A stretch of 64,000 nucleotides of DNA. Origin: Marsupella aquatica. Lineage: Eukaryota > Plantae > Marchantiophyta. The position numbers and the translations under genes are program-made. Where the stretch lies: positions 27,024,340-27,088,339 of the forward strand of contig OZ316894.1 in assembly GCA_973895155.1 (NCBI GenBank), given 5' to 3'. The notes beneath the pieces were generated by a model that did not search any database, had not been told where the DNA came from, and worked only from the letters and a program-made list of their open reading frames with translations. This document shows, piece after piece, positions 22,154-57,751 of the stretch (within the stretch, counting starts at the first letter, position 1; every line of letters begins with the position of its first letter).

Positions 22154-24029
22154 AGGAGCTTTAGGCTGCTTTCCCTCGGCTTCGGGACTCGAGGCTCCTA
22201 CATACATTCAAACCCCCGGCTCGTGTTCCGGCCTCCTTCTTTCCTTGGCTCTGATAAAAGGGTTTTCCCTTGTAAGTCGGCTTGGGCCGACTTCTGGAGC
22301 AGTGTTCAGTACCGGTGCCGTTGCCGTTGCTATTCTCTTTTCCTTCTCCAACAATTTCAGCAGATTCTGCATGCTTGGTTGCTGCATCGGCAAGTCTTCC
22401 GTCCTTGGCCTAAACACCTGGTCGATTGTAGGACTGTCGGGCTGGTTGGGTTTCTCTGTTGCCGGCCTTTGTTTCGGAACCTCCTCTGGTGCCCTTGCCT
22501 GCAGGGGAAGTACCGGGGCAAAGATCTGACTTCGGGCATACCGGCACAACAGCGGCATGTGATAACCAAGCCAAGACACGCTTCCCTTGCCAATAACCTG
22601 TTGTTCCTCCTTCAAGATCTTCTTTAGTTGGGTGAGGAGGTACCCGTTGTAGTCCCGGCTTGGGTCTGGTCTCTCCGCCAGGTAGACTTGTGCCTTGCCA
22701 ATCTCTAGCCTCGGCAAGTTGCAGTGCATGGTTACCCACAAGAAATCGATTATCTCTCCTATGTGCGGGTTGGTGCAGGTGTTCCGAAAGAAGCCATTCT
22801 TCATTGATGGCCCTGGGAACGATCGGAACTCCTTGTCTGGCAAGGTCTTCCGGGTATCTACTTTGGTCTTATTGCCCATCGGTAAGCCAAACACTTTGGC
22901 AATCACTCGGGGAGTGAGATAGAAATCCTTCCCATACACCCTTGTGGAATTGGTCTCGGGCTCCCAAGATCCCACAAATTCTAATAAGTCTGAATCCGAC
23001 ACCTCCGGCTTCAGCCATGGTAATTTCATGAAGGCTTCCAAGTCGGATCCGGCCATGAAGCCTTGGTACTTCCAAGTCTGCATAGCCGTAAAGCATGCAT
23101 CCTCTTCACGTGCAAAGTGTAATTGCACTTCCTCGGGGAGGGTCGCAGCCCAGCCTTTCCAGGTGTCATCTCTTGTCGGAACGACATTGATGGGATCGAC
23201 CTCCTCTTCTTTGGCTTCTTCCTGCCTCCTGCTCCCTTGCTTGGCTGGCTTCCTTCGTGCCGCTGACCTCGTTCTCTTCGCAGGGGTGGTCTCTTCGTTG
23301 GCATTCCCTTTCCTTTTCATAGCTGCTGCCGTGGATATTTCTCCGAGGACGGTTGCCTTCGTCCACCCCTCCGTGCTACCCTTCAACTCCCAGTGTATGT
23401 CGTTGCAGCGGTTGATGGCTTCCCGGATGCCGACTATTCTGTTCTCACAAAATAGAAGGTCATCAAGTTTGTCGCCAGTAGGTGTCCACAGGAATTCAAC
23501 CGTGATGAGTTCTCCTCCTAAGAAGGCAGACTTCTACAGCTCCCACAGTCGAGCGAGCTCCTACTGTTCTCGAGCGGCTCTTTCCGATTCTTCATCCTCG
23601 TAGGTCCCAATGTACTCAGTTGCCCGTTCTAATAGGCATCCCCAAAAATGAGCAGCTTGATTGACGTTGCTCATACCCTTCTTTGAATTGATAGTTGGTA
23701 TCTGCTCCCGCCCCAAGTGCTTGCCTAAGCAGCTGATAGTAGTTGGCTTCACGTAGTTGTATGCTTAGTTCGTGCTTGCAAATGAGCACCCCCCTCCTGC
23801 CTGGTCTTCCTTCCCGTTAGTTACCCATAGCCGCCGGTACTTAGCGCGCCCTAACCCTAATCGTGTTCCCTCTCCCGACGTCCTTACTTCCGGCCTCGGC
23901 TCGGGTTCCATAGTTACCCTCAATTGTTTATATTTTTCTTGTTTTTTGTTACTATACTAATGTGTTTCTAGGGTACACTCTTGTTTTTACCATTTAAACT
24001 GGCCTAGTGATTCCTGGCTAGGCATCACA
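22154..24029 (-). mobile_element. Truncated, diverged LTR of the same gypsy family (first ~1.9 kb including part of the LTR ORF)
   Basis: Begins TGTGATGCCTAG at 24029 on the minus strand, like 42210. ORFs 23561..23752 and 22208..23386 align with the 1220-aa LTR protein; homology stops near 22154. Confidence 0.93.
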
Positions 24030-30900: not shown

Positions 30901-31042
30901 TAAGAACCTTTGGGTGTGTTTAGATTGCCACTCAGCAACCAAGTATATCTCTAAGGTGAGCGGACGCGAGATTATTGCAAGGGATGCAAATCGGTTCCAC
31001 CATTTTAAAGATGGAATGTGTTCTTGTGGTGATTACTGGTGA
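27957..31042 (+). pseudogene. PLS-class PPR protein with E and DYW deaminase domains (organellar C-to-U editing factor), frameshifted
   Basis: Repeated 101-aa PLS triplets, PG box (PGRSW), HSEKLA, CxDCH, terminal CSCGDYW. An 82-bp deletion near 30126 splits it into ORFs 27957..30137 and 30137..31042. Confidence 0.95.
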
Positions 31043-38144: not shown

Positions 38145-39545
38145 CTGAAAGGGACACAAATAAGTCAGTGGTGATTTTGCACATCAATATGTTTTAAACA
38201 TATTCAATGCACAAAACACATCAAGTTCATAGAAAGCATATAAAAACAAATTTAAAAAAATTTAAACCACAAGAGTTCTTCAAAAACCAATTGAAATTAT
38301 TGCAGCATGTTAAACCATGTCCTCTTGAGGCTTTCAATATTTTCAACAAAATGATGAAGCAAAGTTTTATCATATTCATATATAATGATCCACAATATAA
38401 TCATGGTCTGATGGAGGGGGGGAACTGACAGTGGACTTGCGAAGAAGGGCGGAGGGACTTGTGCTCATCCATGAGCGTTTCGACCTTCCAGAAGGAGATT
38501 GAGAGGGGCAAAAAGCTTCTTGAGAGGGGTGGAATCGATACGAGGGTGACCCCTGCTTCTGCACGAAGCTTTTTCTGCTCTCTCTCGCCATCGCTACGAT
38601 CGGGATCCGCTTTAGAGCCGGTTCTGCTGTTTTAGGGTGGAATACTAGTCTGGATTGCGGGAGCACAATTGTGGAGATCCGGTCATGAGAGTTGGAGCCA
38701 GGGGTGGCGGATGAGCCGATGCGTTAGTCTAGCGGGAGCACCTTTCCCGCTGCCACTTTTGGAGGCGAGGATTAAAAGGTAGACACATTGGAACAGGGGT
38801 TCGCATCGATCTGGTGGGGTGCTACAGTGGGTGACTGAAACAAACGGTGTGGATTACGGCAACGGACCTTGGTGTCTGCAAGCTCGGATTGGACAGCGAG
38901 TGGCGGCACTCAGATTCCTAAAAGTGTTTGGAGCTGACATTGCCAAAGAGGATGGCGGAACATGCAGAGAAGAGTTAAGGCGGCACAAAGTGTGCCTGAG
39001 TGGTTCTATTCTGACGGGAGAATTATGGAATAGTTCGGGAAGGACATCTTGGTTAATGAGATTGGACCCAGTGGACTCGAGAGGAGCCTGGAGCCCTCTT
39101 TGATTACAAGGTAAGCACTGCCCCGAACATCTTATTAACGCCGTCTGACTGTCATTGCATACATTAATTTAATGTCGGGCGAAGGTGAAAAGGGATTGGA
39201 CTACTACGGGCGCTCAGAAACCACATCTCGTGGAAGAAGCGATCGGAATGGACGTCTTTCTGAATCAAGGAACATCCGAGTGGCTACACCGATGGCTGTC
39301 CAGACTAGAACGGGGACGCTTCAGGGGGTGAGAGGGCGCGAGACCAATCTGGTTGGTTTGGCCTCTCAGAATAAAGGAAAACTCGGAGAGGAGGGAGTGG
39401 GGAGGTGCAACCAATTCTCAGCGCAAGATGCGCGGAATGATGGGGACGGACCACGGCGGGAGAGAAAGGGAGGAGGCAATCCTGGCCTACAGGGAGAGAG
39501 TAGGGGGGCTCAGCCGGCTCACAACGGGAGATACAGGACGATCTG

Positions 39546-41096: not shown

Positions 41097-41359
41097 GGTT
41101 TAGGACAAAAAAACAACGTTCGCTGTACTTCTCATGAGGATCCATGTCTGATGCAGGTGCGGGCGAAAGCTCAACAAGGACAAACAGATTGCTCAGCCCT
41201 GAAACGAGGAGTCCGAGAAGTGAACAAAGAGGCGCAGCACAAACTAAGATGAGAGACGACTACTCCCTGATAGGGGGACTGACTGAGCAGCAAACGGGGA
41301 GCGGCTCTCAGGGCTGGATGCTATCCCCTGGAGGACGGAATCGTATCTAGGGTGACGGT

Positions 41360-42209
41360 GTGCTGACCAAGTGCACCACTCAACTTGGGGAGCAGCGGGG
41401 GGGGGAGGGGATGGAGAACATAATGCGGATTGCCACATGGAACGTCTGTGGGCTGTGTGAGACAAACCGCAAACATGTCGTCAAAAACTGGGTACAGGCA
41501 CTGCGATTTCCGCTGGGATGCCTAGCTCTACAAGAAGTGAAGACGGATCAATTCCATTTGGACATGGCTCTGAGAACAATTCTCTCAAACTATCAACACT
41601 TCTCATCGGCACCAGAGGAAGGCAGGGGAGGAACGGCACTTCTGGTCCACCCGTCTTTGAAGGTGGTAGCATCAGGCAAACTGGACCTTGGCAGAGCTGT
41701 GTGGATAATCATTGAGAACGAAGGAGGCAATTATGGAGTGGCATCTATCTATGCACCAAACTCGGCTGACTTAAGGGCTTTGCTATGGAACGAGCTTAAG
41801 GATGAGCTTCCGCAGGTAAACTGGATCATCTGTGGCGACTTCAACATGACAGAAAGAAGAGCGGACTCAACCGGGAGATCACCTCTGATCGGCGGAAGAG
41901 AAGCGGAATTCTGGCGCTTCTTAAAAACGCGCTTTGACCTGGTAGATGCGTGGGAGATCACCGGGGGCGCTACGGGTGCCCAATTCACATGGAGAAGGAT
42001 GAGAAGGGGATTAATGGTACAATCCCGATTAGATAGGTTCTACATTAGCGAGAAGGGATGGTGGTTAGAGGAGAGAGTAGAGCTGGTGCATGAAGGAGGA
42101 TCAGCGTTATCAGACCATGACCCGGTGATACTGAAAGGGAGGTTCAGAGATGCAGGTCAGAAGGTGGAGCGAGGTAAGGTGAGACTATTCATGGCCAATC
42201 CAGCGCTTC
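41360..42209 (+). pseudogene. LINE ORF2, APE endonuclease part
   Basis: ATWNVCG, LQEVK, SIYAP, GDFN, SRLDRFY, SDHDP; interrupted by the gypsy element at 42210. Confidence 0.93.
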
Positions 42210-45200
42210 TGTGATGCCTAGACAGGAATCACTCGGCCGGTTAAGTGGGTAAAGCAGGAAGGCACCCTAGGAACACCTTAGTATAGTGACAAAACAAGGA
42301 AAATATAAACAATTAGGGGCAACCATGGAACCCGGGCAGAGGCCGGAGGTAAGGCTGAGGGTGAAAAACCGATTAGGGTTAGGACGCGTTAAGCGTCGGC
42401 GGCTAGGAAGGATCAACGGGAAGAAGGACCGGCAGAGGAGAGGGGTAAGGAGCGCTTGCAGGAGATGGTGGCTCATTTGCGAGCACGAACTAGGCAGACG
42501 ACTACGGGAGGCCAACTACTGTCAGCTGCTTAGGCAAGCACTCAGGGAGAGAGTAGATACCGACGATCAACCTAAGGAGGGTATGAGCAACGTCAATCAA
42601 GCGGCACATTTCTGGGGATGCCTGTTCGAACGGGCAACTGAGTACATCAAGACTTACGAGGACGAGGAGTCAGAAAGGGCAGCTCGAGAACGGCAGGAGC
42701 TCGCTCGATTGTGGGAGCTGCAGAAGACGGCTTTCTTAGGAGGCGAACTCATCAAGGACGAGTTCCTGTGGACGCCTACTTCCAATCAACTCGACGATCT
42801 TCTGTTTTGCAAAGACAGCGTCGTCGGCATCCGAGAGGCCATCAAGAACTGCAACGACATACACTGGGAATTAAAGGGTAGCACGGAAAGGTGGACCCAG
42901 GCAACGGTGCTAGGAGAAACCTCCACGGCAGCAGAGATGAAGAGGAAGGGAGCCGTCAACGATGAAGCCACCCCGGCAAAAAGAACGAGGTCGGCGGCAC
43001 CAAAGAAGCCAGCCGAGCAGCATAGCAGGAGGCAGGGAGAAGCCGAAGAGGAGGAGGTCGATCCCATCAAGGCCATTCCAACCAGGGATGACACCTGGAA
43101 GGGCTGGGCGGCAACCCTACCGGTGGAGGTGCAACTACATTTTGCACGGGAGGAGGATGCATGCTTTACGGCCATGCAGACCAAGAAGTACCAAGGCTTC
43201 ATGGCCGGATCCGGCTTGGAGGCCTTTGTAAGATTACCATGGCTGAAGCCGGAGGTACCGGAGTCAGACCTATTAGAATTCGTGGGGTCATGGGAACCCG
43301 AGACCAATTGCACGAGGATATATGGGAAGGATTTCTATCTTACTCCCAAGGTGATTGCCGAAGTGTTTGGCTTGCCGATGGGCAATAAGACCAAAGTTGA
43401 TACCAGGAAGACCTTGCCTGACAAGGAGTTCCGGTCGTTCCCCGGGCCATCAACGAAGAATGGCTTCTTCCGGAACACCTGCACCAACCCGCACATAGGA
43501 GAGATGATCGACTTCTTGCGGGTGACCATGCATTGTAACTTGCCGAGGGCAGAGATCGGCAAGGCACAGGTCTATCTGGCAGAAAGGCCAGACCCAAGCC
43601 GGGACTACAACGGGTACCTCCTCAACCAATTGAAGAAGATCTTAAAGGAGGAGCAGCAGGTAATCGGCATGGGGAGCGTGTCGCGGCTTGGCTATCACAT
43701 GCCGCTGTTGTGCCGGTATGCCAGAGGTCAGACTTTTGCCCCGGTACTTCCCCTGCAGGTAAGGGCACCCGAGGAAGCTCCAACGCCGAGGCCGTTGGCT
43801 GAGAAGCCTCAACCACCTGTTAGTCCTACGATCGAGCAGGTGTTTAGGCCCAGGAAGGAAGACTTGCCGATGCAGCAACCAGGCATGCAGAGTCTGCTGA
43901 AACTACTGGAGAAAGAAAAGAGATCGGCATCGGCAAAAACAACGGCAACGGCAACAATGCAGGACACTACTACAGAGGTAGGCCTACACTGGCTCACAAG
44001 AGAAAACCCCTTTGCTGGAGACAAGGAGAGAATCAGGCCGGAATCCAAGCCAGGTGTTCGAATGTACGTGGGAACCTCAAGCTCCGAATCTGAGGCAGAA
44101 TTGCCTGAAGCTCCTACCAACAAAGAGGAGAGGGAGAAGCCGGACGTCCAAGAGGTAGAGGAGGCAGTGGAGGACTGCAGCCATGATAATTCCGGCTATG
44201 GGTCGGACCATCACGTTCCAGGAGTAAGGACCTGTGGCCGGTTTGTCCCCACACTTCCAAGGGTAGTGCGAGGGGACCCCAACCAGCAGAGTAGCCCTGA
44301 GTCTCCCCCACCAGATGTTGCTCCCCCGAGCTTCGACGGCATAAAACAGACGGTGCAGGAATTTCAGGAGCGAATCAAGCAGGAGGAAGAGGCCGCCCTG
44401 GCTAAGGAAAAGGATTTACCAGGAGGAGATTGGCCGGAGGACATCAGGCGGCTAGCCGAAAAAGGAAGCAAACCTCTAGCCACGATTGAAGAGATCCGCA
44501 GGACGGCTTGGGAGCAGAGGCCACGATGGGCAATGCCGATCACTTCTACTTACTCCACCTACGCTAAGAATAGAGCCATGGAGTATGGTGAGATGTGTGG
44601 GGAACTTGCGCTCGGCATCTTTGGAGAGGAGTTGGAGGTAGGACCCTTTTTCCATAGGGAGCAGTTGGAGAAGCACCAATTAGAAGAAGCGGTGGCTTTA
44701 GAGAGAAGCAAGAAGGACGAGGTCATTCGGCGGCTTAGGAGGATGGAAGCCGAGATTGAAGATCTAAGGGCGGCCAAGAAAGCCCAAGATGAACTGCGGA
44801 TTAAACGACATGAGCTGAACATCATGCAGGGGCAGTTGGACGCCGCGCAGGCTGATAATCAGAATATCAAGGATAAACTGACTCAGACGCAGGAAGAGTT
44901 GGCCGACACGATCAAAGAAAGGGAAAAGTGGAAGCAAGAGCTGAAGAATACAGAGGAGGCCCACATAACAGCCAACAGCCGGGCCATGGCGGAGACCCAA
45001 AGAAAGGAATGGGCGTTGAAAGGGGAGCTCGAGAAAATCCGCGGAGCCCTTGAGCAGAAGGAGGTCGAGTTAGGGAAATCCTATCAAGGGATTATGGCGC
45101 TGCAGCAGGAGCTTGCGTCCCTGACGACCAGCTTCAAGGCCGACCTAAGGGAGAAGGACGAGATGCTCGAACAGACTTACACCAAGATGAACCAGATGGA

Positions 45201-46869
45201 GTCTATCATCATTGCAGAGCTCGACAAGGAGCTAAGAGCAACCCAGGAGGAGAAGGCTACCTTAAAGAAGGAATTGGAGGAAGCCCACAGGGAGCAGGAG
45301 GAGGCCAAAAACGAGCTGGAGGGGGCACGTAAGGACCTGGATGAAACCCAAGAGGAGTTGGAGGAAATCACGAGGAAGATGGAGAACCTACAGCGGCGGG
45401 CCGACAACCAAACAGAGCGGCTGAAGAAACAAGCCGCAGTATTTAAATGCTTAGCTGCAGCAGGTCCATCTCCTGTTGGGACAAACCAGTTACCAGGGGT
45501 GGTAATTGCCGAAGGACAAGCAGCGCCACCTGCACCAGTGCCGGAAGCAAGTGGGAAGGGGAAGGGACCAGCTGCCGAGCCACCAACGAAGAAGAAGCGG
45601 AAACCTTCAGGGTCAAGGAGTAATACGACTTCACAGGCCGTGGTGATCAAGGAGGTAGACCCAGCACCGACCCCAGACAGGGTCACGGCTAAGGATCCAA
45701 CTACCCTAGGGGAAGGGGAAGCTGAAGCCGTGGGAGTGGCTGAAGCCGAAGCCGTGGGAGTGGTTGAGGCCAAAGCCGTGGGTATTGCCGAGGCCGGTGT
45801 CGAGGCTGAAGCCGAAGGTGGACCCAGTCAGGCCGATGGAGAGTTGACTCGGTCAAGGGCAGGTAATCTGTCAGTAGGCGGGCCAACGGCAGTGGCTGAG
45901 GAGGAAGTGTTGGGGGCGTCCATTGAGGATCCACCACCGGTGTCGTGACGGTGCAAGGGCGCCGTTCCTTTTAGGGAGGGCGGACGTGGAGGGAGGAGGC
46001 GTGAGTGGGCAGGGCGGGCACGGATCTCCACGTTTAGGATTAGGATCCGAACCAGGAGCGGCCCTGACACTTAGCTTAGTGGGATTGCGGTCCCACTGGT
46101 AGGAGCAACACTTGTGCTCCTGCCTTGCTGTACATAGGTAGATCCGGGCAAGTAGATTACTGTTAAGTAGATTAGGCTTACGATGCAAAGAATGGCGGAT
46201 CCACTACCAGGATAAGTACCTGGGCAGCGGGGAGCTCAGGGCCTCTTCTTTAGCAAGTTTTTAGTTTGCACCAGCCGGGCTGGGATCAAGTAGTACGAGA
46301 AGCTCTCGGTTAGTCATACAGTGACCCTTGTGTATATTCATGTTTCCTCATGCCTAAGAGCTGAATAGAGTTGGCCTCACGGCTTAGTTCGCAGAACTTG
46401 TGTATGAGATGTACTGTTTGTATGGCAAGTGCATGGTATGACTCAGTCAGAATGAGTCATTTTGCTATTTGTGTGTCGCATTAACTTGTGTGAAGAGTGC
46501 CCACATCAACAGAAGGAAGGAAAGTAAGCAGGGGAGTGAGAGTTGGATGTGTCGAGCTGAGAGAGGTCTTAGCGGCTTAACCAAGCCTATTGGGGATCAT
46601 TCCGGCGGCGGAATCCAAACATACCTAACAAGACGGAGGGGAAGACAGGGGAAGACAGGGGAAGGCCTATATTAGGCCGGCTACGTATCTCATGACCCGA
46701 TGAAGGATCTGTCCAGTATATGTGTGTAAAATGTTAATAGTAGTAGTAGAAGGTTAGCAGCGTCCCATGCCGCTAAGCCGCGGAAACGGCCTCGCCAAGC
46801 ACGAAACCTGCGGGAATCGGCTTGAGCTGGGGGGTTTCTTGGGTTTAGGGAGCCATGGGACGCACCACA
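42210..46869 (+). repeat. 5' LTR (4,660 bp)
   Basis: TGTGATGCC...GCACCACA; direct repeat of 53094-57746. Confidence 0.97.
42286..45948 (+). CDS. LTR-resident ORF, up to 1220 aa: globular transposon-related domain, long coiled coil, acidic/basic tail
   Basis: Uninterrupted ORF wholly inside the 5' LTR. In-frame ATGs at 42325 (ACCATGG) and 42583. NLS-like PPTKKKRK; no hydrophobic transmembrane stretch seen. Confidence 0.85.
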   Translation: MTKQGKYKQLGATMEPGQRPEVRLRVKNRLGLGRVKRRRLGRINGKKDRQRRGVRSACRRWWLICEHELGRRLREANYCQLLRQALRERVDTDDQPKEGMSNVNQAAHFWGCLFERATEYIKTYEDEESERAARERQELARLWELQKTAFLGGELIKDEFLWTPTSNQLDDLLFCKDSVVGIREAIKNCNDIHWELKGSTERWTQATVLGETSTAAEMKRKGAVNDEATPAKRTRSAAPKKPAEQHSRRQGEAEEEEVDPIKAIPTRDDTWKGWAATLPVEVQLHFAREEDACFTAMQTKKYQGFMAGSGLEAFVRLPWLKPEVPESDLLEFVGSWEPETNCTRIYGKDFYLTPKVIAEVFGLPMGNKTKVDTRKTLPDKEFRSFPGPSTKNGFFRNTCTNPHIGEMIDFLRVTMHCNLPRAEIGKAQVYLAERPDPSRDYNGYLLNQLKKILKEEQQVIGMGSVSRLGYHMPLLCRYARGQTFAPVLPLQVRAPEEAPTPRPLAEKPQPPVSPTIEQVFRPRKEDLPMQQPGMQSLLKLLEKEKRSASAKTTATATMQDTTTEVGLHWLTRENPFAGDKERIRPESKPGVRMYVGTSSSESEAELPEAPTNKEEREKPDVQEVEEAVEDCSHDNSGYGSDHHVPGVRTCGRFVPTLPRVVRGDPNQQSSPESPPPDVAPPSFDGIKQTVQEFQERIKQEEEAALAKEKDLPGGDWPEDIRRLAEKGSKPLATIEEIRRTAWEQRPRWAMPITSTYSTYAKNRAMEYGEMCGELALGIFGEELEVGPFFHREQLEKHQLEEAVALERSKKDEVIRRLRRMEAEIEDLRAAKKAQDELRIKRHELNIMQGQLDAAQADNQNIKDKLTQTQEELADTIKEREKWKQELKNTEEAHITANSRAMAETQRKEWALKGELEKIRGALEQKEVELGKSYQGIMALQQELASLTTSFKADLREKDEMLEQTYTKMNQMESIIIAELDKELRATQEEKATLKKELEEAHREQEEAKNELEGARKDLDETQEELEEITRKMENLQRRADNQTERLKKQAAVFKCLAAAGPSPVGTNQLPGVVIAEGQAAPPAPVPEASGKGKGPAAEPPTKKKRKPSGSRSNTTSQAVVIKEVDPAPTPDRVTAKDPTTLGEGEAEAVGVAEAEAVGVVEAKAVGIAEAGVEAEAEGGPSQADGELTRSRAGNLSVGGPTAVAEEEVLGASIEDPPPVS

Positions 46870-46873
46870 TTTT

Positions 46874-46891
46874 TGGCGCTAGATGGAGGGG
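46874..46891 (+). promoter_or_regulatory. Primer-binding site
   Basis: TGGCGCTAGATGGAGGGG, 4 nt after the LTR end; the cognate tRNA was not determined. Confidence 0.75.
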
Positions 46892-46938
46892 GCATTTCTT
46901 AAGCCGTGAGATATGAAGTTAGAACGGAAGCGTAGGTA

Positions 46939-49932
46939 ATGACTGACCTTACGCCGAGGGAAGAAAGAGTGATTCAACGGGAGAGAGCTCGACTGCAGCA
47001 GCTCGCCGGGTGGCATGATACACAGCGACTGAGAGGGGCAGAAAGAGCTGGTAGCTCCGAAACTGGAAGTGGCGTCGAAGAAGACATACCAGAAGAAGAG
47101 TCGGTAAGGAGAAGTGAGTCTCCAACCGACATGGGGGAACCAGAGGCACGGCCAGACGAGAGGCCAGGGACCAGATTGAGCCAGTGGTCGCGCATACATT
47201 ACAAGGCATTTCATGGGAGAGGAGATGAGGATCCGGACGAATGGTTGGATGATTTCGAGGGAACCGCTGCAGCAAATGGAGAATCGGCCATCAAGATGCA
47301 GATTCTTCCCGGCCTGTTCAAGGGTGAGGCTAGGCCTTGGTACAGAGCATTAGATGTGGAAGATCAAGCCATCTGGGATATCTTCAAAACACTCTTTGTT
47401 AAGGAGTTTCGACCCATTGGAACTTCAGAACTAGCAGTGCTGAAGTTGGGACAACTTCGGTTCAAGGAGAACAAATCCTTCAGGAAGTTCTTGCAACGCT
47501 TTCAGAAACTGGTAAGACGTACAAAGACCAATGCATCTGAAGGTATGCAACTTCAATGGTTGGTGAATGCTTTGCCACAGAAGATGAGTTTTGCAATTAG
47601 GAAGGAGAACCCGGAGACCTTAGCCGAAGCAATTAAGGATATTCAATTATACATTAATGCAGATATCACAAGCCGGAAGAAACAGCTTAAGTCTGAGAGT
47701 TCCTCATCAGAGGAGGGATCACCCCATAAGAAAAAAGATAAGAAGAAGAAACATTCCAAGAAGTCTAGAAGTGATAAGTCAAGCTCGGATAGTGGGAGTA
47801 GCAAGAGTGAGTCATCTTCTAGTTCTGAAGAAGAAAAAACTAGGAAAAGGAAGGGCAGAAGGAGAGGGAAGACGAAAGTCAAGATGGAGGCTAAGCCACC
47901 AGATAACATCGTAGCCCTTACCGAGCAACTTAAGGCTATCATTGCAGAGGTAAAACCAAAGAAGAAGGTAGTACAGGAGGATAGCTCTGTATGGTGTGCC
48001 TTATGTTATAAAACCGGACACCATAAAGATGCTTGTCCTAAGCTTAATACTAATCATGTTCGGCATGTGGCCGAGATCAGACCATGTCAGGGAGAAGTAG
48101 AGTACTTTTTGGGAGATGCCGCTGATAGTGTTTTCGGCATCAGTGAGACTGGAGCACGAGACCTATCCAACAGACCTGCATCTCTGTGGTCAGGGTTAAG
48201 GAACAATCCAGGAGAGATGTATCCTCGGATTATTCAGAACCCGTCAGTACCTCCTAGGCCGAATGTGCAAAGATTTGCGGCGTGCTATAATTGTGGTCAA
48301 CCTGGCCATTTTGCTAGAGAATGCCCGAATGCACGCAAACAGGGTGATGGACAACCAGCTCAGCTATGTATGGGATGCCGACAGGAAGGTCATATGCTAG
48401 GGCAATGTCCTACTTGGTTGGCAGGCCTGGCCGCAAATCATAAGCTTTTGCCGATCAAGATCTTACCACCAGGTACTACCCCTGGAGGAGTTCAAATCAA
48501 CCACATCGAACTAGGATGGCAAGAGGATGCCGAGGCAGAGTTCGTACCATCTGATGATGAGGCCGAAGCCCTATCAACCTTCTCAGAGGAGGATTTAGAT
48601 CATGATTGCTACCGGGTCTCTACTCGATCTACCAGAAGGAAGGAAAGGTGGGATGGGCTAGCCAAAAATAAAGGGAAGGTTACGGAGGAAAAGATCGACT
48701 CTTCGTCAACATCAACAGAAGGAGAAGGGAGGGCTCCGGCAATACAGGTAAGCCATGAGCCCACCAGTGAAACCAATCCTTCACAAGATAGCGACTTCAA
48801 TCGAGATCATCCTAAGTTGTTCTACCCCTCTGTTACGGCTAGTGTTAAGGAACAACTAAGAGAATTAGAAACCCTGGAGAATACCGAAGCCATTGCCAAG
48901 GATGTAAAACGAGCAAAAGCATTGTTTGCTTCGGAAGACCCAACAGCTGTGGAGACTAGCGTGGCAAAACTGGCCGAATCCAAGACGGAAACACCACCAG
49001 AAGAGAAGCCGATTGTTCCCTATGACCTGGCTAAAGATGTACTAGAATCTAGAGTCTCGGCAACAGTAGGTCAACTATTGAAAAATAGCCCGTACTTCCG
49101 GAAGCAATTAAGGAAGGCTATTCTCGGCAAGCCGAGATTACCCAAGGTAGCAACCAGATCCGACGTACTAATGATAGAAGAAGATCAAGGAGCCCCAGCA
49201 TTACCATTAATGATTCAAGGAGAATTATTACTACGGGTACCCATCGATGGAGGATCAGGGGTATGTATTATGATTGATTCAACAGCAAAAGGGTGGGGTC
49301 TAACACCGGAGATGACTGGAAGAGTGTTGAACATGGCCAATGGATATCAGGTCATTCCGACGGGAGTGTTAACCGGCATCAAGACAGAGATAGGAGGTAT
49401 CTTCTTTAGCATTAACTATGTAGTAATGAAGCCGGTAAATCCTACGTCATTCCGGCTATTGATTGGTAGGCCATGGCTGTACCTAGCCGAGGTAATAGAA
49501 GATTGGGGTAAAAAGCAGTTCACTTTCGGGACCCCCTCTATCACGGTATCCTGGGACACTAAGGATGACCGTAGGAAAAGCATAAGGGAAGTAGATGGGT
49601 ACGATAGTGGACTGGAGTCAGCCGATGAAGTACGTTGGTTAGAATGCTTCACTAACCTAACCGAAGAAGGTGTCTTTGGACCAGAGGTACCCCCCAGCGG
49701 ATTATGGCAAGAACCAATGGAAGGTGACTTGGAAGAAGAAGACAAAGAGGTCGAGGACTGCTTTACAATAGAATCCACCTTTTTAGCTGCAATTCCGGAG
49801 GAAGTTAAGGATGTAGACCAATTGGATGAAACGGCTAAGTGGGGAGCAGTAGCAGGGACAGTGGATTTTCTGCAGGCGTTGTGGCAGAGCCGACGGGGTC
49901 CACAACGCCATCGATCATCGGCAAGGAATTAA
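46939..49932 (+). CDS. gag: Gag (three CCHC knuckles) plus aspartic protease
   Basis: FHGRGDEDPDEWL, GEARPWY; CALCYKTGHHKDAC, CYNCGQPGHFAREC, CMGCRQEGHMLGQC; PIDGGSG and LLIGRPWL. Confidence 0.93.
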   Translation: MTDLTPREERVIQRERARLQQLAGWHDTQRLRGAERAGSSETGSGVEEDIPEEESVRRSESPTDMGEPEARPDERPGTRLSQWSRIHYKAFHGRGDEDPDEWLDDFEGTAAANGESAIKMQILPGLFKGEARPWYRALDVEDQAIWDIFKTLFVKEFRPIGTSELAVLKLGQLRFKENKSFRKFLQRFQKLVRRTKTNASEGMQLQWLVNALPQKMSFAIRKENPETLAEAIKDIQLYINADITSRKKQLKSESSSSEEGSPHKKKDKKKKHSKKSRSDKSSSDSGSSKSESSSSSEEEKTRKRKGRRRGKTKVKMEAKPPDNIVALTEQLKAIIAEVKPKKKVVQEDSSVWCALCYKTGHHKDACPKLNTNHVRHVAEIRPCQGEVEYFLGDAADSVFGISETGARDLSNRPASLWSGLRNNPGEMYPRIIQNPSVPPRPNVQRFAACYNCGQPGHFARECPNARKQGDGQPAQLCMGCRQEGHMLGQCPTWLAGLAANHKLLPIKILPPGTTPGGVQINHIELGWQEDAEAEFVPSDDEAEALSTFSEEDLDHDCYRVSTRSTRRKERWDGLAKNKGKVTEEKIDSSSTSTEGEGRAPAIQVSHEPTSETNPSQDSDFNRDHPKLFYPSVTASVKEQLRELETLENTEAIAKDVKRAKALFASEDPTAVETSVAKLAESKTETPPEEKPIVPYDLAKDVLESRVSATVGQLLKNSPYFRKQLRKAILGKPRLPKVATRSDVLMIEEDQGAPALPLMIQGELLLRVPIDGGSGVCIMIDSTAKGWGLTPEMTGRVLNMANGYQVIPTGVLTGIKTEIGGIFFSINYVVMKPVNPTSFRLLIGRPWLYLAEVIEDWGKKQFTFGTPSITVSWDTKDDRRKSIREVDGYDSGLESADEVRWLECFTNLTEEGVFGPEVPPSGLWQEPMEGDLEEEDKEVEDCFTIESTFLAAIPEEVKDVDQLDETAKWGAVAGTVDFLQALWQSRRGPQRHRSSARN

Positions 49933-52900
49933 ATACCAAGGGATCGGCATACAAGCCGATTACGAGGGCAGAACAAATTGAGGCCCTATTAGAAGCCGAG
50001 AGAGCACAGCGGCCTAACTCGCAGGAGCAAGAGGTGGATGAGATGGATAGACACGATCCAGAGCCAAGGCAGGAAGGGGAGCCAGCCACTAATTCAAGAC
50101 TGAATAGACCGGTAAGGGGACAATCTATGGACACCAAGGAAGGGACCGACTCGGCTAGTCCAGCCGAGATCCCAGTTTATGGAGGTATGAGATTAGAGAG
50201 ACTGGAAGCCGAACTGGACCCGAATTTGAAGAAGCAGATTAATATGATCCAAGCACGGCAATATCGGAAGCTCGACTTAGGAGAGGGAAGAGAACTGAAC
50301 TTAGGGAGAAACCTAGCACCTGAGCTCGAGAAAGAGATCAGTGACTTATTGATTGAATTTCAGGATGTGTTTGCATGGAGTCACCAAGATCTAAAGGGCG
50401 TAGATCCAACACTAGGGGAACATCGAATTGATCTCATGTTAGGAGCCAAATCATTTCGACAACCAATTCGAAGGATGAACCCGAAGTATTCCCTGCTGGT
50501 CAAAACAGAAATCGACAAACTAGTGGAAGCTGGATTCATCACTCCAGTCCTGCATTCAGACTGGGTGTCTCCAATTGTGATAGTTCCCAAAAAAGCTGGA
50601 CCCGATGGTAAACCCAAGATCCGGGTTTGTCAGGATTACAGGAAGCTGAATGAAGCAACATTAAAAGACCATTTTCCTTTACCGTTTACTGATATGGTAC
50701 TAGACATGGTAGCCAGTCATGAACTATATTCATTCATGGATGGATACTCTGGTTATAACCAAATCAGGATTCGGCAGGAAGACCAAATCAAGACGGCCTT
50801 CATCACGGAATGGGGGATCTATGTCTTCAATCGTATGCCGTTTGGACTCTGCAACGCACCAGCTATGTTCCAACGATTAATGGTGAACATTTTTCATGAT
50901 TACTTGAGAAAGTTCATGGAAATCTTCATTGATGACTTTGCAGTATTCGGGAAGGCATCGAAACATGCTAAATACCTCAGGAAAACCTTCATGAGATGTA
51001 GGGAGGTGGGTCTCAAGTTACACCCAGATAAATGTTTTTTTGCAGTAACCGAGGGGGTGCTACTAGGTCACAAGGTATCAAGGAAGGGCATTGAGATTGA
51101 CAAAGGTAAGCTAGCAGTATGGCTAGATATCATGCAACCTAAGAACATAAAAGATGTAAGATCCTTCTTGGGATGCATTGGTTACTATCGCCGGTTTATC
51201 AAGGATTTTGCCAAGCTGGCTTTACCATTAACCAATATGCTCAAGGCAGGAGCAGACTTCGAACCCACACCCGAACGAGTCACAGCGGTGGTAGAATTGA
51301 AGCAGATGTTAGTAGAGGCCCCAGTCATGATAGCACCGGACTGGAACAAAGATTTTCATGTTTTTGTAGATGTCTCGGGCTTCTGTATTGGCTCAGTACT
51401 AAGTCAGTTGGATGAGAAAGGAAGGGACCATCCCATATACTTCGCAAGCCGTCAGCTTGCCGATGCCGAACGGAACTACTCTACCACGGAAAGAGAAGCA
51501 TTAGGAGTCATTTATTCTTGTAAAAAGTTTAGGCATTATTTACTAGGGTACAAGGTAATCTTTCATACTGATCATGAAAGTTTGAAGTACCTAGTCAATA
51601 AGCCGGACCTTACAGGCAGAGTAGCAAGATGGATTTTGCTATTACAAGAGTTTGACTATGAGCTGAGGATCAAGCCGGGAAAGTTACATGCCAATGCCGA
51701 CTTCTTTTCAAGGATCACAGGTAAACCTGCCACGGATTGCATCGATGATCGATTCCCCGACGAGGAGCTATTCGTTGTGGAAATAGCTGGTACATGGTAC
51801 CCTGAGATTTTACAATTTCTCAGCACTTCCAGATTACAGCCAGGATTAAGCCGAGAGCAAGCCGCAGTCTTTGTGCGGAAGGTCAGACAGTATCAGTGCA
51901 TTAAAGGCATACTGCACAAGCATGGAATCAACGGCACAATTCAAAGGTGTTTGGAAAAGAGAGAGGTAAAACGAGTCCTACGGGCCATGCATGGAGAGGA
52001 GGCCAGAGGACATTTTGCCCCAGTAACCACGTCTAAGAAAATATTAAATGCCGGTTACTGGTGGCCCACCTTGCACAAGGATGTCTATCAGTTTATCAAA
52101 CAATGCGATCCTTGTCAACGAGCGGGAGGACCAAGGGCGTCCACCAGGCATCCACTGCACCCTATTCTACCTCTGGCACCATTCGAGAAGTGGGGTATTG
52201 ATTACATTGGACCTCTGAAACCATTGACCCACCCTCGACGGAACAAGTACATAATCCTGGCTACGGATTATGCAACTAAATGGGTAGAGGCCAGACCAAC
52301 AACGAAGGATGATGCAATTACTACGGCTAGATTCATGTATGAGCAGATCTTCACCAGGTATGGAGCACCCCTAGAATTAGTTAGTGATAGAGGAACCCAT
52401 TTTTTGAATGATATAATTAGTCGTTTAAATGAGCAGTATTTAGTTAAACATAGGCCTACTACTCCCTACCATCCAAAGGCAAACGGGTTGACAGAACGAG
52501 CAAACGGAATCATAGGAAATATATTGAACAAGACAGTAGCTCAGAACAAACTCGATTGGGATGATAAATTGTTTGCTGCTGTTTTTGCTTACAATCTGGC
52601 CTATAAATCCACTACCGGTCATACACCCTTCTTCTTAACCTTTGGACAAGAAGCCCTGGTACCCATGCAACTTGAGATACCGACATTTCAAGTTACAATT
52701 GAGGAAAGAGCCTCAGCGGAGGAGACCCTAAAGGAGCGAGAATATAGGTTAGAAGCTTTAGAGGAAGCGAGAATGATTTCAGCCGAGAGAGTAGAATATA
52801 GACAGAATATCATGAAGCAGCAGTATGATAAAAGGTTAAAAGTAGTTAGTATTCATACCGGTGATCTTGTGTTACTTTATGACAGTAGGTATAGTAGGTT

Positions 52901-53105
52901 TCCAGGGAAGCTTTACACTCGCTGGTTAGGACCCTTTAGAGTAACCATGATGTTCCCCAATGGCTCCGTACAATTGGCCAACATTACGGGAGAGGTATAT
53001 CCAGTTCGCATCCATTATGACCGCCTCAAGAAATACTATATGGACGAAGATGAAGTTGTTCGCGAGGACGCTTCACAATTAAGTGGGGAGCTATGTGATG
53101 CCTAG
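49839..53105 (+). CDS. pol: Pol: reverse transcriptase, RNase H, integrase (-1 frame relative to gag-PR)
   Basis: RVCQDYRKLN, DGYSGYNQI, RMPFGLCNAP, FIDD, FVDVS...EREAL...TDH, HHCC zinc motif, GIDYIGP, SDRG, NGLTER, WLGPF. The stop falls just inside the 3' LTR. Confidence 0.97.
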   Translation: MGSSSRDSGFSAGVVAEPTGSTTPSIIGKELNTKGSAYKPITRAEQIEALLEAERAQRPNSQEQEVDEMDRHDPEPRQEGEPATNSRLNRPVRGQSMDTKEGTDSASPAEIPVYGGMRLERLEAELDPNLKKQINMIQARQYRKLDLGEGRELNLGRNLAPELEKEISDLLIEFQDVFAWSHQDLKGVDPTLGEHRIDLMLGAKSFRQPIRRMNPKYSLLVKTEIDKLVEAGFITPVLHSDWVSPIVIVPKKAGPDGKPKIRVCQDYRKLNEATLKDHFPLPFTDMVLDMVASHELYSFMDGYSGYNQIRIRQEDQIKTAFITEWGIYVFNRMPFGLCNAPAMFQRLMVNIFHDYLRKFMEIFIDDFAVFGKASKHAKYLRKTFMRCREVGLKLHPDKCFFAVTEGVLLGHKVSRKGIEIDKGKLAVWLDIMQPKNIKDVRSFLGCIGYYRRFIKDFAKLALPLTNMLKAGADFEPTPERVTAVVELKQMLVEAPVMIAPDWNKDFHVFVDVSGFCIGSVLSQLDEKGRDHPIYFASRQLADAERNYSTTEREALGVIYSCKKFRHYLLGYKVIFHTDHESLKYLVNKPDLTGRVARWILLLQEFDYELRIKPGKLHANADFFSRITGKPATDCIDDRFPDEELFVVEIAGTWYPEILQFLSTSRLQPGLSREQAAVFVRKVRQYQCIKGILHKHGINGTIQRCLEKREVKRVLRAMHGEEARGHFAPVTTSKKILNAGYWWPTLHKDVYQFIKQCDPCQRAGGPRASTRHPLHPILPLAPFEKWGIDYIGPLKPLTHPRRNKYIILATDYATKWVEARPTTKDDAITTARFMYEQIFTRYGAPLELVSDRGTHFLNDIISRLNEQYLVKHRPTTPYHPKANGLTERANGIIGNILNKTVAQNKLDWDDKLFAAVFAYNLAYKSTTGHTPFFLTFGQEALVPMQLEIPTFQVTIEERASAEETLKEREYRLEALEEARMISAERVEYRQNIMKQQYDKRLKVVSIHTGDLVLLYDSRYSRFPGKLYTRWLGPFRVTMMFPNGSVQLANITGEVYPVRIHYDRLKKYYMDEDEVVREDASQLSGELCDA
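49863..49922 (+). promoter_or_regulatory. Putative -1 ribosomal frameshift signal (G_GAT_TTT plus stem-loop/pseudoknot)
   Basis: Heptamer at 49863-49869 in the gag frame, 5-nt spacer, 10-bp stem GGCGTTGTGG/CCACAACGCC (49875-49884/49900-49909). Loop GCCGA can pair with TCGGC at 49918-49922. Confidence 0.75.
53081..53090 (+). promoter_or_regulatory. Polypurine tract
   Basis: AAGTGGGGAG, 3 nt before the 3' LTR. Confidence 0.75.
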
Positions 53106-56100
53106 ACAGGAATCACTCGGCCGGTTAAGTGGGTAAAGCAGGAAGGCACCCTAGGAACACCTTAGTATAGTGACAAAACAAGGAAAATATAAACAATTAG
53201 GGGCAACCATGGAACCCGGGCAGAGGCCGGAGGTAAGGCTGAGGGTGAAAAACCGATTAGGGTTAGGACGCGTTAAGCGTCGGCGGCTAGGAAGGATCAA
53301 CGGGAAGAAGGACCGGCAGAGGAGAGGGGTAAGGAGCGCTTGCAGGAGATGGTGGCTCATTTGCGAGCACGAACTAGGCAGACGACTACGGGAGGCCAAC
53401 TACTGTCAGCTGCTTAGGCAAGCACTCGGGGAGAGAGTAGATACCGACGATCAACCTAAGGAGGGTATGAGCAACGTCAATCAAGCGGCACATTTCTGGG
53501 GATGCCTGTTCGAACGGGCAACTGAGTACATCAAGACTTACGAGGACGAGGAGTCAGAAAGGGCAGCTCGAGAACGGCAGGAGCTCGCTCGATTGTGGGA
53601 GCTGCAGAAGATGGCTTTCTTAGGAGGCGAACTCATCAAGGACGAGTTCCTGTGGACGCCTACTTCCAATCAACTCGACGATCTTCTGTTTTGCAAAGAC
53701 AGCGTCGTCGGCATCCGAGAGGCCATCAAGAACTGCAACGACATACACTGGGAATTAAAGGGTAGCACGGAAAGGTGGACCCGGGCAACGGTGCTAGGAG
53801 AAACCTCCACGGCAGCAGAGATGAAGAGGAAGGGAGCCGTCAACGATGAAGCCACCCCTGCAAAAAGAACGAGGTAGGCGGCACCAAAGAAGCCAGCCGA
53901 GCAGCATAGCAGGAGGCAGGGAGAAGCCGAAGAGGAGGAGGTCGATCCCATCAAGGCCATTCCAACCAGGGATGACACCTGGAAGGGCTGGGCGGCAACC
54001 CTACCGGTGGAGGTGCAACTACATTTTGCACGGGAGGAGGATGAATGCTTTACGGCCATGCAGACCAAGAAGTACCAAGGCTTCATGGCCGGATCCGGCT
54101 TGGAGGCCTTTGTAAGATTACCATGGCTGAAGCCGGAGGTACCGGAGTCAGACCTATTAGAATTCGTGGGGTCATGGGAACCCGAGACCAATTGCACGAG
54201 GATATATGGGAAGGATTTCTATCTTACTCCCAAGGTGATTGCCGAAGTGTTTGGCTTGCCGATGGGCAATAAGACCAAAGTTGATACCAGGAAGACCTTG
54301 CCTGACAAGGAGTTCCGGTCGTTCCCCGGGCCATCAACGAAGAATGGCTTCTTCCGGAACACCTGCACCAACCCGCACATAGGAGAGATGATCGACTTCT
54401 TGCGGGTGACCATGCATTGTAACTTGCCGAGGGCAGAGATCGGCAAGGCACAGGTCTATCTGGCAGAAAGGCCAGACCCAAGCCGGGACTACAACGGGTA
54501 CCTCCTCAACCAATTGAAGAAGATCTTAAAGGAGGAGCAGCAGGTAATCGGCATGGGGAGCGTGTCGCGGCTTGGCTATCACATGCCGCTGTTGTGCCGG
54601 TATGCCAGAGGTCAGACTTTTGCCCCGGTACTTCCCCTGCAGGTAAGGGCACCCGAGGAAGCTCCAACGCCGAGGCCGTTGGCTAAGAAGCCTCAACCAC
54701 CTGTTAGTCCTACGATCGAGCAGGTGTTTAGGCCCAGGAAGGAAGACTTGCCGATGCAGCAACCAGGCATGCAGAGTCTGCTGAAACTACTGGAGAAAGA
54801 AAAGAGATCGGCATCGGCAAAAACAACGGCAACGGCAACAATGCAGGACACTACTACAGAGGTAGGCCTACACCGGCTCACAAGAGAAAACCCCTTTGCT
54901 GGAGACAAGGAGAGAATCAGGCCGGAATCCAAGCCAGGTGTTCGAATGTACGTGGGAACCTCAAGCTCCGAATCTGAGGCAGAATTGCCTGAAGCTCCTA
55001 CCAACGAAGAGGAGAGGGAGAAGCCGGACGTCCAAGAGGTAGAGGAGGCAGTGGAGGACTGCAGCCATGATAATTCCGGCTATGGGTCGGACCATCACGT
55101 TCCAGGAGTAAGGACCTGTGGCCGGTTTTTCCCCACACTTCCAAGGGTAGTGCGAGGGGACCCCAACCAGCAGAGTAGCCCTGAGTCTCCCCCACCAGAT
55201 GTTGCTCCCCCGAGCTTCGACGGCATAAAACAGACGGTGCAGGAATTTCAGGAGCGAATCAAGCAGGAGGAAGAGGCCGCCCTGGCTAAGGAAAAGGATT
55301 TACCAGGAGGAGATTGGCGGGAGGACATCAGGCGGCTAGCCGAAAAAGGAAGCAAACCTCTAGCCACGATTGAAGAGATCCGCAGGACGGCTTGGGAGCA
55401 GAGGCCACGATGGGCAATGCCGATCACTTCTACTTACTCCACCTACGCTAAGAATAGAGCCATGGAGTATGGTGAGATGTGTGGGGAACTTGCGCTCGGC
55501 ATCTTTGGAGAGGAGTTGGAGGTAGGACCCTTTTTCCATAGGGAGCAGTTGGAGAAGCACCAATTAGAAGAAGCGGTGGCTTTAGAGAGAAGCAAGAAGG
55601 ACGAGGTCATTCGGCGGCTTAGGAGGATGGAAGCCGAGATTGAAGATCTAAGGGCGGCCAAGAAAGCCCAAGATGAACTGCGGATTAAACGACATGAGCT
55701 GAACATCATGCAGGGGCAGTTGGACGCCGCGCAGGTTGATAATCAGAATATCAAGGATAAACTGACTCAGACGCAGGAAGAGTTGGCCGACACGATCAAA
55801 GAAAGGGAAAAGTGGAAGCAAGAGCTGAAGAATACAGAGGAGGCCCACATAACAGCCAACAGCCGGGCCATGGCGGAGACCCAAAGAAAGGAATGGGCGT
55901 TGAAAGGGGAGCTCGAGAAAATCCGCGGAGCCCTTGAGCAGAAGGAGGTCGAGTTAGGGAAATCCTATCAAGGGATTATGGCGCTGCAGCAGGAGCTTGC
56001 GTCCCTGACGACCAGCTTCAAGGCCGACCTAAGGGAGAAGGACGAGATGCTCGAACAGACTTACGCCAAGATGAACCAGATGGAGTCTGTCATCATTGCA

Positions 56101-57746
56101 GAGCTCGACAAGGAGCTAAGAGCAACCCAGGAGGAGAAGGCTACCTTAAAGAAGGAATTGGAGGAAGCCCACAGGGAGCAGGAGGAGGCCAAAAACGAGC
56201 TGGAGGGGGCACGTAAGGACCTGGATGAAACCCAAGAGGAGTTGGAGGAAATCACGAGGAAGATGGAGAACCTACAGCGGCGGGCCGACAACCAAACAGA
56301 GCGGCTGAAGAAACAAGCCGCAGTATTTAAATGCTTAGCTGCAGCAGGTCCATCTCCTGTTGGGACAAACCAGTTACCAGGGGTGGTAATTGCCGAAGGA
56401 CAAGCCGCGCCACCTGCACCAGTGCCGGAAGTAAGTGGGAAGGGGAAGGGACCAGCTGCCAAGCCACCAACGAAGAAGAAGCGGAAACCTTCAGGGTCAA
56501 GGAGTAATACGACTTCACAGGCCGTGGTGATCAAGGAGGTAGACCCAGCACCGACCCCAGACAGGGTCACGGCTAAGGATCCAACTACCCTAGGGGAAGG
56601 GGAAGCCGAAGCCGTGGGAGTGGCTGAGGCCGAAGCCGTGGGAGTGGCTGAGGCCGAAGCCGTGGGTATTGCCGAGGCCGGTGTCGAGGCTGAAGCCGAA
56701 GGTGGACCCAGTCAGGCCGATGGAGAGTTGACTCGGTCAAGGGCAGGTAATCTGTCAGTAGGCGGGCCAACGGCAGTGGCTGAGGAGGAAGTGTTGGGGG
56801 CGTCCATTGAGGATCCACCACCGGTGTCGTGACGGTGCAAGGGCGCCGTTCCTTTTAGGGAGGGCGGACGTGGAGGGAGGAGGCGTGAGTGGGCAGGGCG
56901 GGCACGGATCTCCACGTTTAGGATTAGGATCCGAACCAGGAGCGGCCCTGACACTTAGCTTAGTGGGATTGCGGTCCCACTGGTAGGAGCAACACTTGTG
57001 CTCCTGCCTTGCTGTACATAGGTAGATTCGGGCAAGTAGATTACTGTTAAGTAGATTAGGCTTACGATGCAAAGAATGGCGGATCCACTACCAGGATAAG
57101 TACCTGGGCAGCGGGGAGCTCAGGGCCTCTTCTTTAGCAAGTTTTTAGTTTGCACCAGCCGGGCTGGGATCAAGTAGTACGAGAAGCTCTCGGTTAGTCA
57201 TACAGTGACCCTTGTGTATATTCATGTTTCCTCATGCCTAAGAGCTGAATAGAGTTGGCCTCACGGCTTAGTTCGCAGAACTTGTGTATGAGATGTACTG
57301 TTTGTATGGCAAGTGCATGGTATGACTCAGTCAGAATGAGTCATTTTGCTATTTGTGTGTCGCATTAACTTGTGTGAAGAGTGCCCACATCAACAGAAGG
57401 AAGGAAAGTAAGCAGGGGAGTGAGAGTTGGATGTGTCGAGCTGAGAGAGGTCTTAGCGGCTTAACCAAAGGATCATTCCGGCAGTGGGAATCCAAACATA
57501 CCTAACAAGACGGAGGGGAAGACAGGGGAAGACAGGGGAAGGCCTATATTAGGCCGGCTACGTATCTCATGACCCGATGAAGGATCTGTCCAGTATATGT
57601 GTGTAAAATGTTAATAGTAGTAGTAGAAGGTTAGCAGCGTCCCATGCCGCTAAGCCGCGGAAACGGCCTCGCCAAGCACGAAACCTGCGGGAATCGGCTT
57701 GAGCTGGGGGGTTTCTTGGGTTTAGGGAGCCATGGGACGCACCACA
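53094..57746 (+). repeat. 3' LTR (4,653 bp)
   Basis: Copy of 42210-46869 at offset 10,884, with about two dozen differences counted by eye. Confidence 0.97.
53170..56832 (+). pseudogene. 3'-LTR copy of the LTR ORF with one nonsense mutation
   Basis: TCG>TAG at 53875-53877; otherwise colinear with 42286..45948. Confidence 0.9.
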
Positions 57747-57751
57747 GCTTC

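Follow-up and report, generated by a model that had tools for sequence, protein, structure and literature searches.

Extra open reading frames (ORFs) of plant Ty3/gypsy retrotransposons have been described in the internal region of the elements (PMC7264820, PMC6317226, PMC11963269, PMC11728184; here and below, statements on published work refer to the accessible parts of the papers cited). The long terminal repeats (LTRs) in those surveys reach ~5 kb, and the accessible parts note a gene inside none of them. PMD, Transposase_28 and Athila ORF-1 are the domains met most often in the extra ORFs of Ogre, Retand and Athila (PMC6317226). VANC anti-silencing proteins are structurally similar to MAIN/PMD, and the Athila domain has been modelled as a coiled-coil pentamer (PMC13547354; 10.1101/2024.09.27.615353). 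The present analysis concerns a Ty3/gypsy element of the liverwort Marsupella aquatica in which a long protein gene lies inside the LTR. The stretch analysed, termed the window, comprises 64,000 nucleotides of contig OZ316894.1 (assembly GCA_973895155.1, positions 27,024,340 to 27,088,339 of the forward strand), and all coordinates below are those of the window.

Among retroviruses, sag of mouse mammary tumour virus (MMTV), nef of human immunodeficiency virus (HIV) and bel of foamy viruses are genes in or overlapping U3, the unique 3' part of the LTR. For a plant retrotransposon with an ORF inside its LTR, liverworts included, no precedent was found in a literature search from which subscription papers were mostly absent.

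A selected protein gene inside the LTR

The LTR ORF is a real protein gene under purifying selection and lies wholly within the true LTR. Reading frame 42271-45948 of the 5' LTR runs through 1,225 codons uninterrupted and occupies, from stop to stop, 79% of the LTR; the equivalent frame of the 3' LTR (53155-56832) has a single stop at 53875-53877 and no frameshift, in agreement with a preliminary description of the locus. That description had set the gene at ~1,200 codons, and on this point it is revised. Upstream of 42583, six frameshifting indels separate the window LTR from an older, partial LTR copy elsewhere in the window, and the rate of non-synonymous substitution divided by that of synonymous substitution (dN/dS) is 0.64 (interval 0.35-1.3); ~104 codons at the beginning of the stop-to-stop frame are accordingly rejected as protein. 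Since these basic N-terminal codons are not conserved, ATG 42583 is the most likely start of the coding sequence, and the gene would have 1,121 codons. From this conserved ATG, the 5' copy (42583..45948, + strand) is open for 1,121 amino acids (aa) and covers 72% of the LTR, and the 3' copy (53467..56832, +) is broken at codon 137 by the stop mentioned above.

The older copy (22154..24029, - strand) is inverted and 81.6% identical; it covers the gene up to codon ~510 and has three stops in this part. Measured against it from ATG 42583, dN/dS is 0.15 (bootstrap 95% 0.11-0.21; 502 codons, the three stop-bearing codons of the older copy being set aside), whereas the two other frames give 0.97 and 1.43 in the same comparison. 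The preliminary description had counted a lack of such selection, along with a lack of transcription or translation, against the gene. By blocks of the stop-to-stop frame, dN/dS is 0.11 for aa 105-240, 0.62 (interval 0.15-3.6) for the second of the four blocks, which has 30 codons, 0.09 for aa 271-490 and 0.28 for aa 491-615. Selection is measurable for the first ~510 codons, where the older copy ends. Beyond codon ~510 the frame is open; among 12 of the 23 family indels, none falls between 42583 and 45874, and three of these 12 lie in the last 25 codons.

The element is a Ty3/gypsy LTR retrotransposon in which paired TG...CA LTRs, a target site duplication (TSD), a primer binding site (PBS) and a polypurine tract (PPT) are all present. 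Self-alignment of the window gives a direct repeat 42210-46869 / 53094-57746 with 99.27% identity across 4,661 columns, corresponding to the 5' LTR (42210..46869, +; 4,660 bp) and the 3' LTR (53094..57746, +; 4,653 bp). Both are bounded by TG and CA. The 5-bp TSD, GCTTC (left 42205..42209, right 57747-57751, +), lies inside L1 ORF2. Between the two LTRs there are 22 substitutions, scattered along their length (0.47%), and a short patch of indels; the insertion is therefore recent, and the element young.

The internal region begins with a PBS-like sequence (46874..46891, +), which starts with TGG four bases past the 5' LTR. It is followed by a gag(-protease) ORF (46936..49932, +) with Retrotrans_gag and a zinc knuckle, and by a pol ORF in the -1 frame (49839..53105, +) with reverse transcriptase (RT), RNase H (RH) and integrase. 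The Pfam scan gives the domain order gag and then protease, RT, RH and integrase, the protease being recognized by motif only. The PPT (53081..53090, +) falls within the final pol codons and stops 3 nt short of the 3' LTR. The first 12 nt of the 3' LTR double as the last pol codons and stop, leaving zero spacer between pol and the 3' LTR.

Two observations bear on the LTR limits. The older copy begins at the same LTR base (TGTGATG), and its upstream flank is unrelated and non-integrase; the LTR boundary is therefore old. Contig depth, taken from contigs of four runs and summed in a way that gives no copy number, was followed over 42000-47400: LTR bins have 156k-921k (run X1) and 261k-1,536k (run X2), and outside the LTR three gag-side bins have 78k-174k and the flank bin has ~1.3k-1.5k (X1, X2). 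The depth steps at both LTR ends support family-wide LTR boundaries, and the higher depth of the LTR than of gag is a hint of excess solo LTRs.

The product and its family

The predicted product has a helical N-terminal part, a basic motif at aa 131, a globular core at ~aa 166-390 and a proline-rich linker, followed in the C-terminal half by a proline-free charged segment (aa 691-950), a basic motif at aa 1003 and a low-complexity tail. The core (43090..43740, +; ~200 aa, globular) belongs to an unnamed family and shows the dN/dS of 0.09 given above. The coiled-coil-like segment (44653..45432, +) contains no prolines in aa 691-950 and 43% charged residues, and a coiled coil is plausible there: the product has a Pfam match of coiled-coil type, to ATG16, at an expectation value (E) of 0.0077, below cut-off, and a heptad-periodicity test gave no clear peak. 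No transmembrane segment was found in the product (top 19-residue hydropathy 1.22), which by this measure is not Env-like, as had been proposed. Of the nuclear features also claimed for it, the missing transmembrane segment and the motifs at aa 131 and aa 1003, which resemble nuclear localization signals, are confirmed; the coiled coil is left plausible, the heptad peak being unclear.

Word-index protein searches with the LTR ORF returned no relative, nor did the core match anything when metagenome and viral contigs were scanned with it. A profile of three core sequences, searched against 1.84 billion proteins at E ≤ 0.001, delimited a core family of 35 database clusters with a best E of 3.7e-39, P0122-P0125 being the nearest homologs. 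On this profile similarity, the LTR gene is a member of a wider unnamed family and not an orphan.

A second, distant and broken core homolog lies in the window at 17657-19200 (+), with a score of 63 that 0/2,000 shuffles reach and a profile E of 1.4e-24. After it come a linker and a stretch resembling a coiled coil, and no gag or pol match lies nearby. It may be what is left of a gene from another family, or else a host or DNA-transposon gene.

Position of the homologs in related elements

A search for relatives of the window integrase yielded 61 metagenome loci; viral contigs scanned with the integrase gave no match. A family profile was built from the window core and 33 of the 35 clusters (P0142 and P0155 omitted). 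At E<0.05 it matches 16/61 of these integrase-selected loci, the best reversed-sequence control having E 7.7. Of the 34 loci in which 2.5 kb or more follow the integrase, 13 match, as do three shorter loci; together they represent ~8 distinct elements as judged by shared offsets. Every one of the 16 matches is in sense orientation and lies 3' of integrase, at a distance of 0.75-1.73 kb in 15 cases. The homologs of related elements are thus placed between integrase and the 3' LTR, in line with the preliminary statement that extra ORFs elsewhere lie between the LTRs.

One of the 61 loci, L012, is a circular contig of 10.3 kb; it has an LTR of 0.6 kb, a PBS and, after the gene, a PPT. Its positions 765-9743 form a single ORF of 2,992 aa, a Gag-Pol with ~930 aa past the integrase, and this extension consists of the same core and coiled-coil-like tail, fused in frame. 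The window core scores 67 against the L012 core, a value that 0/2,000 shuffles reach. When the profile was rebuilt from 22/34 window-side sequences, L012 was found with E 7e-8. L012 and the window element share a core with a coiled-coil-like tail, in sense orientation and 3' of integrase, but the L012 copy is fused to Gag-Pol and lies upstream of the PPT and the 0.6-kb LTR; to judge from this layout, it is clearly internal and not in the LTR.

The downstream ORFs of L005, L006 and L053 were considered as homologs and rejected. L039-L042, a single degenerate element, contain a 0.9-kb repeat (~7631-8539 and ~12383-13292 in L039), one copy within RT and the other within the accessory-domain gene; the upstream copy interrupts RT and looks like a separate insertion, and it speaks neither for nor against LTR residence.

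Affinities of the family and lineage of the element

In the ESM Atlas, the neighbours of the window core include Transposase_32 (0.89) and ATHILA (0.88), and the L012 core has the same neighbours at 0.89 and 0.88; the first neighbour of both cores is an unnamed 72-member cluster of 279 aa. Sub-threshold Pfam matches to Transposase_32 are found for L012 (E 0.011, 16.1 bits), P0137 (E 0.006, 16.9 bits; cut-off 45) and also L046. No DUF1985 match was found for the family sequences scanned. On these weak similarities, all of them below threshold, the unnamed family is probably related to Transposase_32/ATHILA ORF-1 without being a member.

The nearest named pol relatives are from Calypogeia (68-69% identity), Riccia (53-59%) and Marchantia (52%). 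In a midpoint-rooted RT-RH tree of 35 rows, which contains no Tat, Phygy or chromovirus references, the window element groups with two Calypogeia rows and two further rows (100/100), and eight angiosperm rows form their own 100/100 clade apart from it. As far as this tree goes, the element groups with liverwort elements and not with flowering-plant Athila. A Pfam scan of gag and pol found no additional RNase H (aRH). Because of this and of the liverwort grouping, the element is not a typical Athila, Tat or Ogre. Nor was a chromodomain found by Pfam; pol ends shortly past the integrase tail. Phygy and Selgy have a 4-bp TSD and, in the part of the source available, no extra ORF (PMC6317226, MOESM5), whereas the window element has a 5-bp TSD and a large extra ORF. 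Tat clades Z1 and Z2, which lack aRH, occur in liverworts and non-flowering plants (PMC10508981); the accessible part of a further source contributes lineage names only (PMC12885004).

Candidate promoter and 3'-end signals

The LTR contains a sole TATA(A/T)A match (42304..42309, +; LTR +95), which is conserved in the older copy and is a candidate promoter. A donor-like GTAAG motif follows at ~42348 in the window LTR and in the older copy. Downstream of the gene, the non-coding LTR tail (45949..46869, +; 921 bp) includes a T/TGTG-rich patch at ~46310-46490 with candidate 3'-end signals. A TATA-like sequence at 46668 was rejected as a conserved promoter, being changed in ~60% of the family depth (place 46670). 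A purine run followed by TG at 45988-46003 was given no weight as a vestigial PPT and LTR start, the region being 68% purine. No interpretable splice joint was seen in 15 of 26 joints from contig runs X3, X6, X7 and X12 or in 15 of 114 in another contig set.

The preliminary inference that, with the ORF in U3, progeny inherit the nonsense allele of the 3' LTR could be reversed, because the sole TATA(A/T)A sits 95 nt into the LTR: if the TATA at +95 is the main promoter, the gene could lie in R/U5 (the repeated and unique 5' parts of the LTR) and progeny would mostly inherit the 5' allele.

A possible history and role of the gene

Ancestrally, an accessory gene would have lain between integrase and the PPT, as in the relatives. 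Plus-strand priming would then have shifted upstream to the end of pol, so that the former 3' internal region became U3. A 3' origin of the gene is suggested because homologs are 3' of integrase at all 16 matching loci and because pol abuts the LTR, and capture by PPT relocation, hence U3 placement, is considered rather probable. The resulting LTR cassette would consist of the TATA at +95, a 250-nt leader, the gene and the T/TGTG-rich patch as 3'-end signals; that a self-contained cassette of this kind is present in every LTR, solo LTRs included, is modestly favoured. The product would oligomerise via the coiled-coil-like segment, enter the nucleus, bind chromatin via the core and help family copies escape silencing in trans. 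Nuclear DNA or chromatin binding with an anti-silencing effect is put forward tentatively, by analogy to PMD/VANC-type accessory proteins. As a whole, the reading that the gene was captured into U3, has its own TATA and encodes a nuclear, oligomeric, chromatin-binding anti-silencing protein stands at about even chances.

Solo-LTR recombination is the usual way in which hosts disarm LTR elements. Dispersal of the gene by solo LTRs is consistent with the contig depth. An extension that we regard as doubtful is that the LTR is a counter-silencing cassette, so that solo LTRs, outnumbering full elements, would keep a working trans-acting gene and help the family; equally doubtful is the accompanying idea of a continuum from integrase fusion (L012) via an internal gene to an LTR-resident gene.

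Several observations weigh against these readings. As to selection, the 21 in-frame substitutions between the two LTRs fall 9/8/4 on codon positions 1/2/3, a neutral pattern, and the open frame in this copy is therefore no proof of selection on this copy. By counts of codon effects, which cover 32 coding places among 40 of 782 variable places, 5/6 changes private to the 5' LTR and 4/5 common to both LTRs are non-synonymous, compared with 11/21 of the changes that vary within the family. With most of its own recent changes non-synonymous, this copy may be a passenger. A canonical TATA is missing from the tail. As to position, degenerate and distant elements make up most of the matching loci; L012 is the only one with clear LTR limits, and it shares 49% RT-RH identity with the window element and has a long branch. 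In addition, the full family profile grew from an alignment that included L012, and with the window-side-only profile L023 has E 0.043 and the remaining loci 0.07-16.

As to function, AlphaFold2 models of the product are low in confidence, with a mean predicted local distance difference test score (pLDDT) of 36 from one sequence and 35 from three, and sequence, profile and fold searches of the PDB gave no match, the fold query coming from these pLDDT 35-36 models. Atlas scores below 0.9 count as leads only. The window protein has no Pfam match to Transposase_32 (PF20167), ATHILA (PF03078) or PMD; 1/35 database homologs reaches even E 0.006 for Transposase_32, and PMD (PF10536) matches 0/7 and 0/35 family sequences. 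The scores of the window core against three Transposase_32 stretches were equalled by 200, 366 and 163 of 500 shuffles; in the comparison with P0083, the L012 score was reached by 0/500 shuffles and the window score by 200/500. The hhalign probability is 16% and 33%, over a short hairpin-helix motif. Moreover, the step from Transposase_32 to PMD/VANC is a presumed one.

Three alternatives differ in how much of the U3 capture and anti-silencing reading they would replace. The most radical holds that the long repeat is a local duplication and not an LTR pair, or that purine-rich sequence has produced the ORF as a by-product that is not under selection. The ORF + strand is indeed A/G-skewed (AT skew up to 0.33) with fewer stops, and the LTR copies differ neutrally; but the TSD, TG...CA, PBS and PPT stand exactly at the repeat ends, depth steps occur at both ends, the 82% copy has the same start, dN/dS is 0.15 in this frame only, and there are 35 homolog clusters. 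This alternative is largely refuted and highly improbable. Another, rather unlikely one accepts the gene and moves the promoter: the +95 TATA would be the main promoter, U3 would be ~125 nt, and an R/U5 of great length would contain the gene. The gene mRNA would arise by polyadenylation in the tail of the 5' LTR and genomic RNA by read-through, with splicing to gag-pol, and progeny would mostly inherit the 5'-LTR allele. The sole, conserved TATA(A/T)A at 42304 with GTAAG next in both copies and the variable TATA-like 46668 agree with such a layout, as does rice Retrosat2, to which annotation from motifs assigns a U3 of 244 nt and an R of 2 kb (PMC3485330). It is opposed by the 3' origin to which the 16/16 loci and the abutting pol point, and it would require ~4.5 kb of minus-strand strong-stop DNA and a way to avoid polyadenylation in the 5' LTR.

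The remaining alternative leaves the LTR gene in place and gives its protein a part in replication, such as nuclear import, a particle scaffold or integration targeting (e.g., integrase tethering). In other gypsy elements, the integrase C-terminus is the seat of targeting domains, and in L012 the core and coiled-coil-like tail are fused in frame to just this terminus. Nuclear or preintegration-complex-related roles have also been proposed for extra ORFs (PMC7264820). Here, however, the gene is separate and has its own candidate promoter, and LTR copies appear to outnumber gag copies by far, as would suit a factor acting in trans. A role in replication is judged improbable; counter-silencing in trans ranks first, and a replication or targeting role, favoured by the L012 fusion, comes next.

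Other features of the window

The gypsy element splits an L1, with a DUF4283 ORF1 and endonuclease on the left and RT and zf-RVT on the right (Pfam). The L1 is near-intact, occupying 39504-42209 and 57747-60895 (+). A 200-bp inverted repeat pair (1741-1940 / 60937-61136; 98% identical, 59 kb apart) has its right copy after the L1 end. The region 26177-31042 (+) holds a pentatricopeptide repeat (PPR) gene of the DYW type (27921-31042) with a frame change near 30130; the gene has 303-bp internal repeats and, at the 5' end, a 1.2-kb tandem duplication (26177-27392 / 27404-28624, 96.5%). A cluster of long ORFs at 206-9247 includes 206-1492, 4473-5435 and 5823-7034, which were scanned without a Pfam match; by eye, 3971-5435 resembles a DNA-transposon transposase, and 8681-9247 an SNF2-type helicase fragment. 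An ORF at 36159-36755 (+) looks by eye like a Harbinger/PIF-type transposase fragment, and 14808-15373 is a degenerate tandem-repeat patch.

Comparison with known systems

Athila ORF-1/Transposase_32, the Transposase_28 and SMC-like proteins of Retand and the PMD of Ogre are likewise accessory genes of plant non-chromovirus gypsy elements. The window gene shares with them a globular core and a coiled-coil-like segment, nuclear-type features and a weak likeness to Transposase_32/ATHILA; it differs in lying wholly in the LTR, in being duplicated with it, in its length of 1,121 aa and in reaching no Pfam cut-off. The rice elements Retrosat2, FRetro3 and RIRE3 resemble the window element by description, as plant gypsy elements with LTRs of >3 kb and an extra sense ORF; their ORF0 lies upstream of gag-pol and is not described as part of the LTR in the accessible text (PMC3485330). 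The VANC proteins of VANDAL transposons and the PMD proteins MAIN/MAIL offer a possible functional model, namely transposon-encoded nuclear counter-silencing in trans (PMC13547354, PMC5418596, 10.1101/2024.09.27.615353), but no PMD or DUF1985 match links the window gene to them.

The gene is likely a 3' accessory gene absorbed into the LTR: accessory genes are known, and LTR residence would, to judge from the literature search, be new in plants. If true, the counter-silencing cassette would be the first case in plants of a retrotransposon whose LTR houses a protein gene. With a selected gene of 3.4 kb in the LTR, a solo LTR becomes a different entity, each insertion brings two copies of the gene, and the inheritance of the gene comes to depend on the rules by which reverse transcription handles U3, R and U5. 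For the role of Athila/Tat-type extra ORFs, the gene is also a compact test case in high copy number, in a lineage of non-seed plants that has transformation models. The vertebrate retroviral genes sag, nef and bel are much smaller ORFs with a mapped U3, whereas the U3 position of the window gene is presumed, and sequence kinship with them is not expected; what they have in common with it is a protein gene in the terminal repeat, and hence two per provirus.

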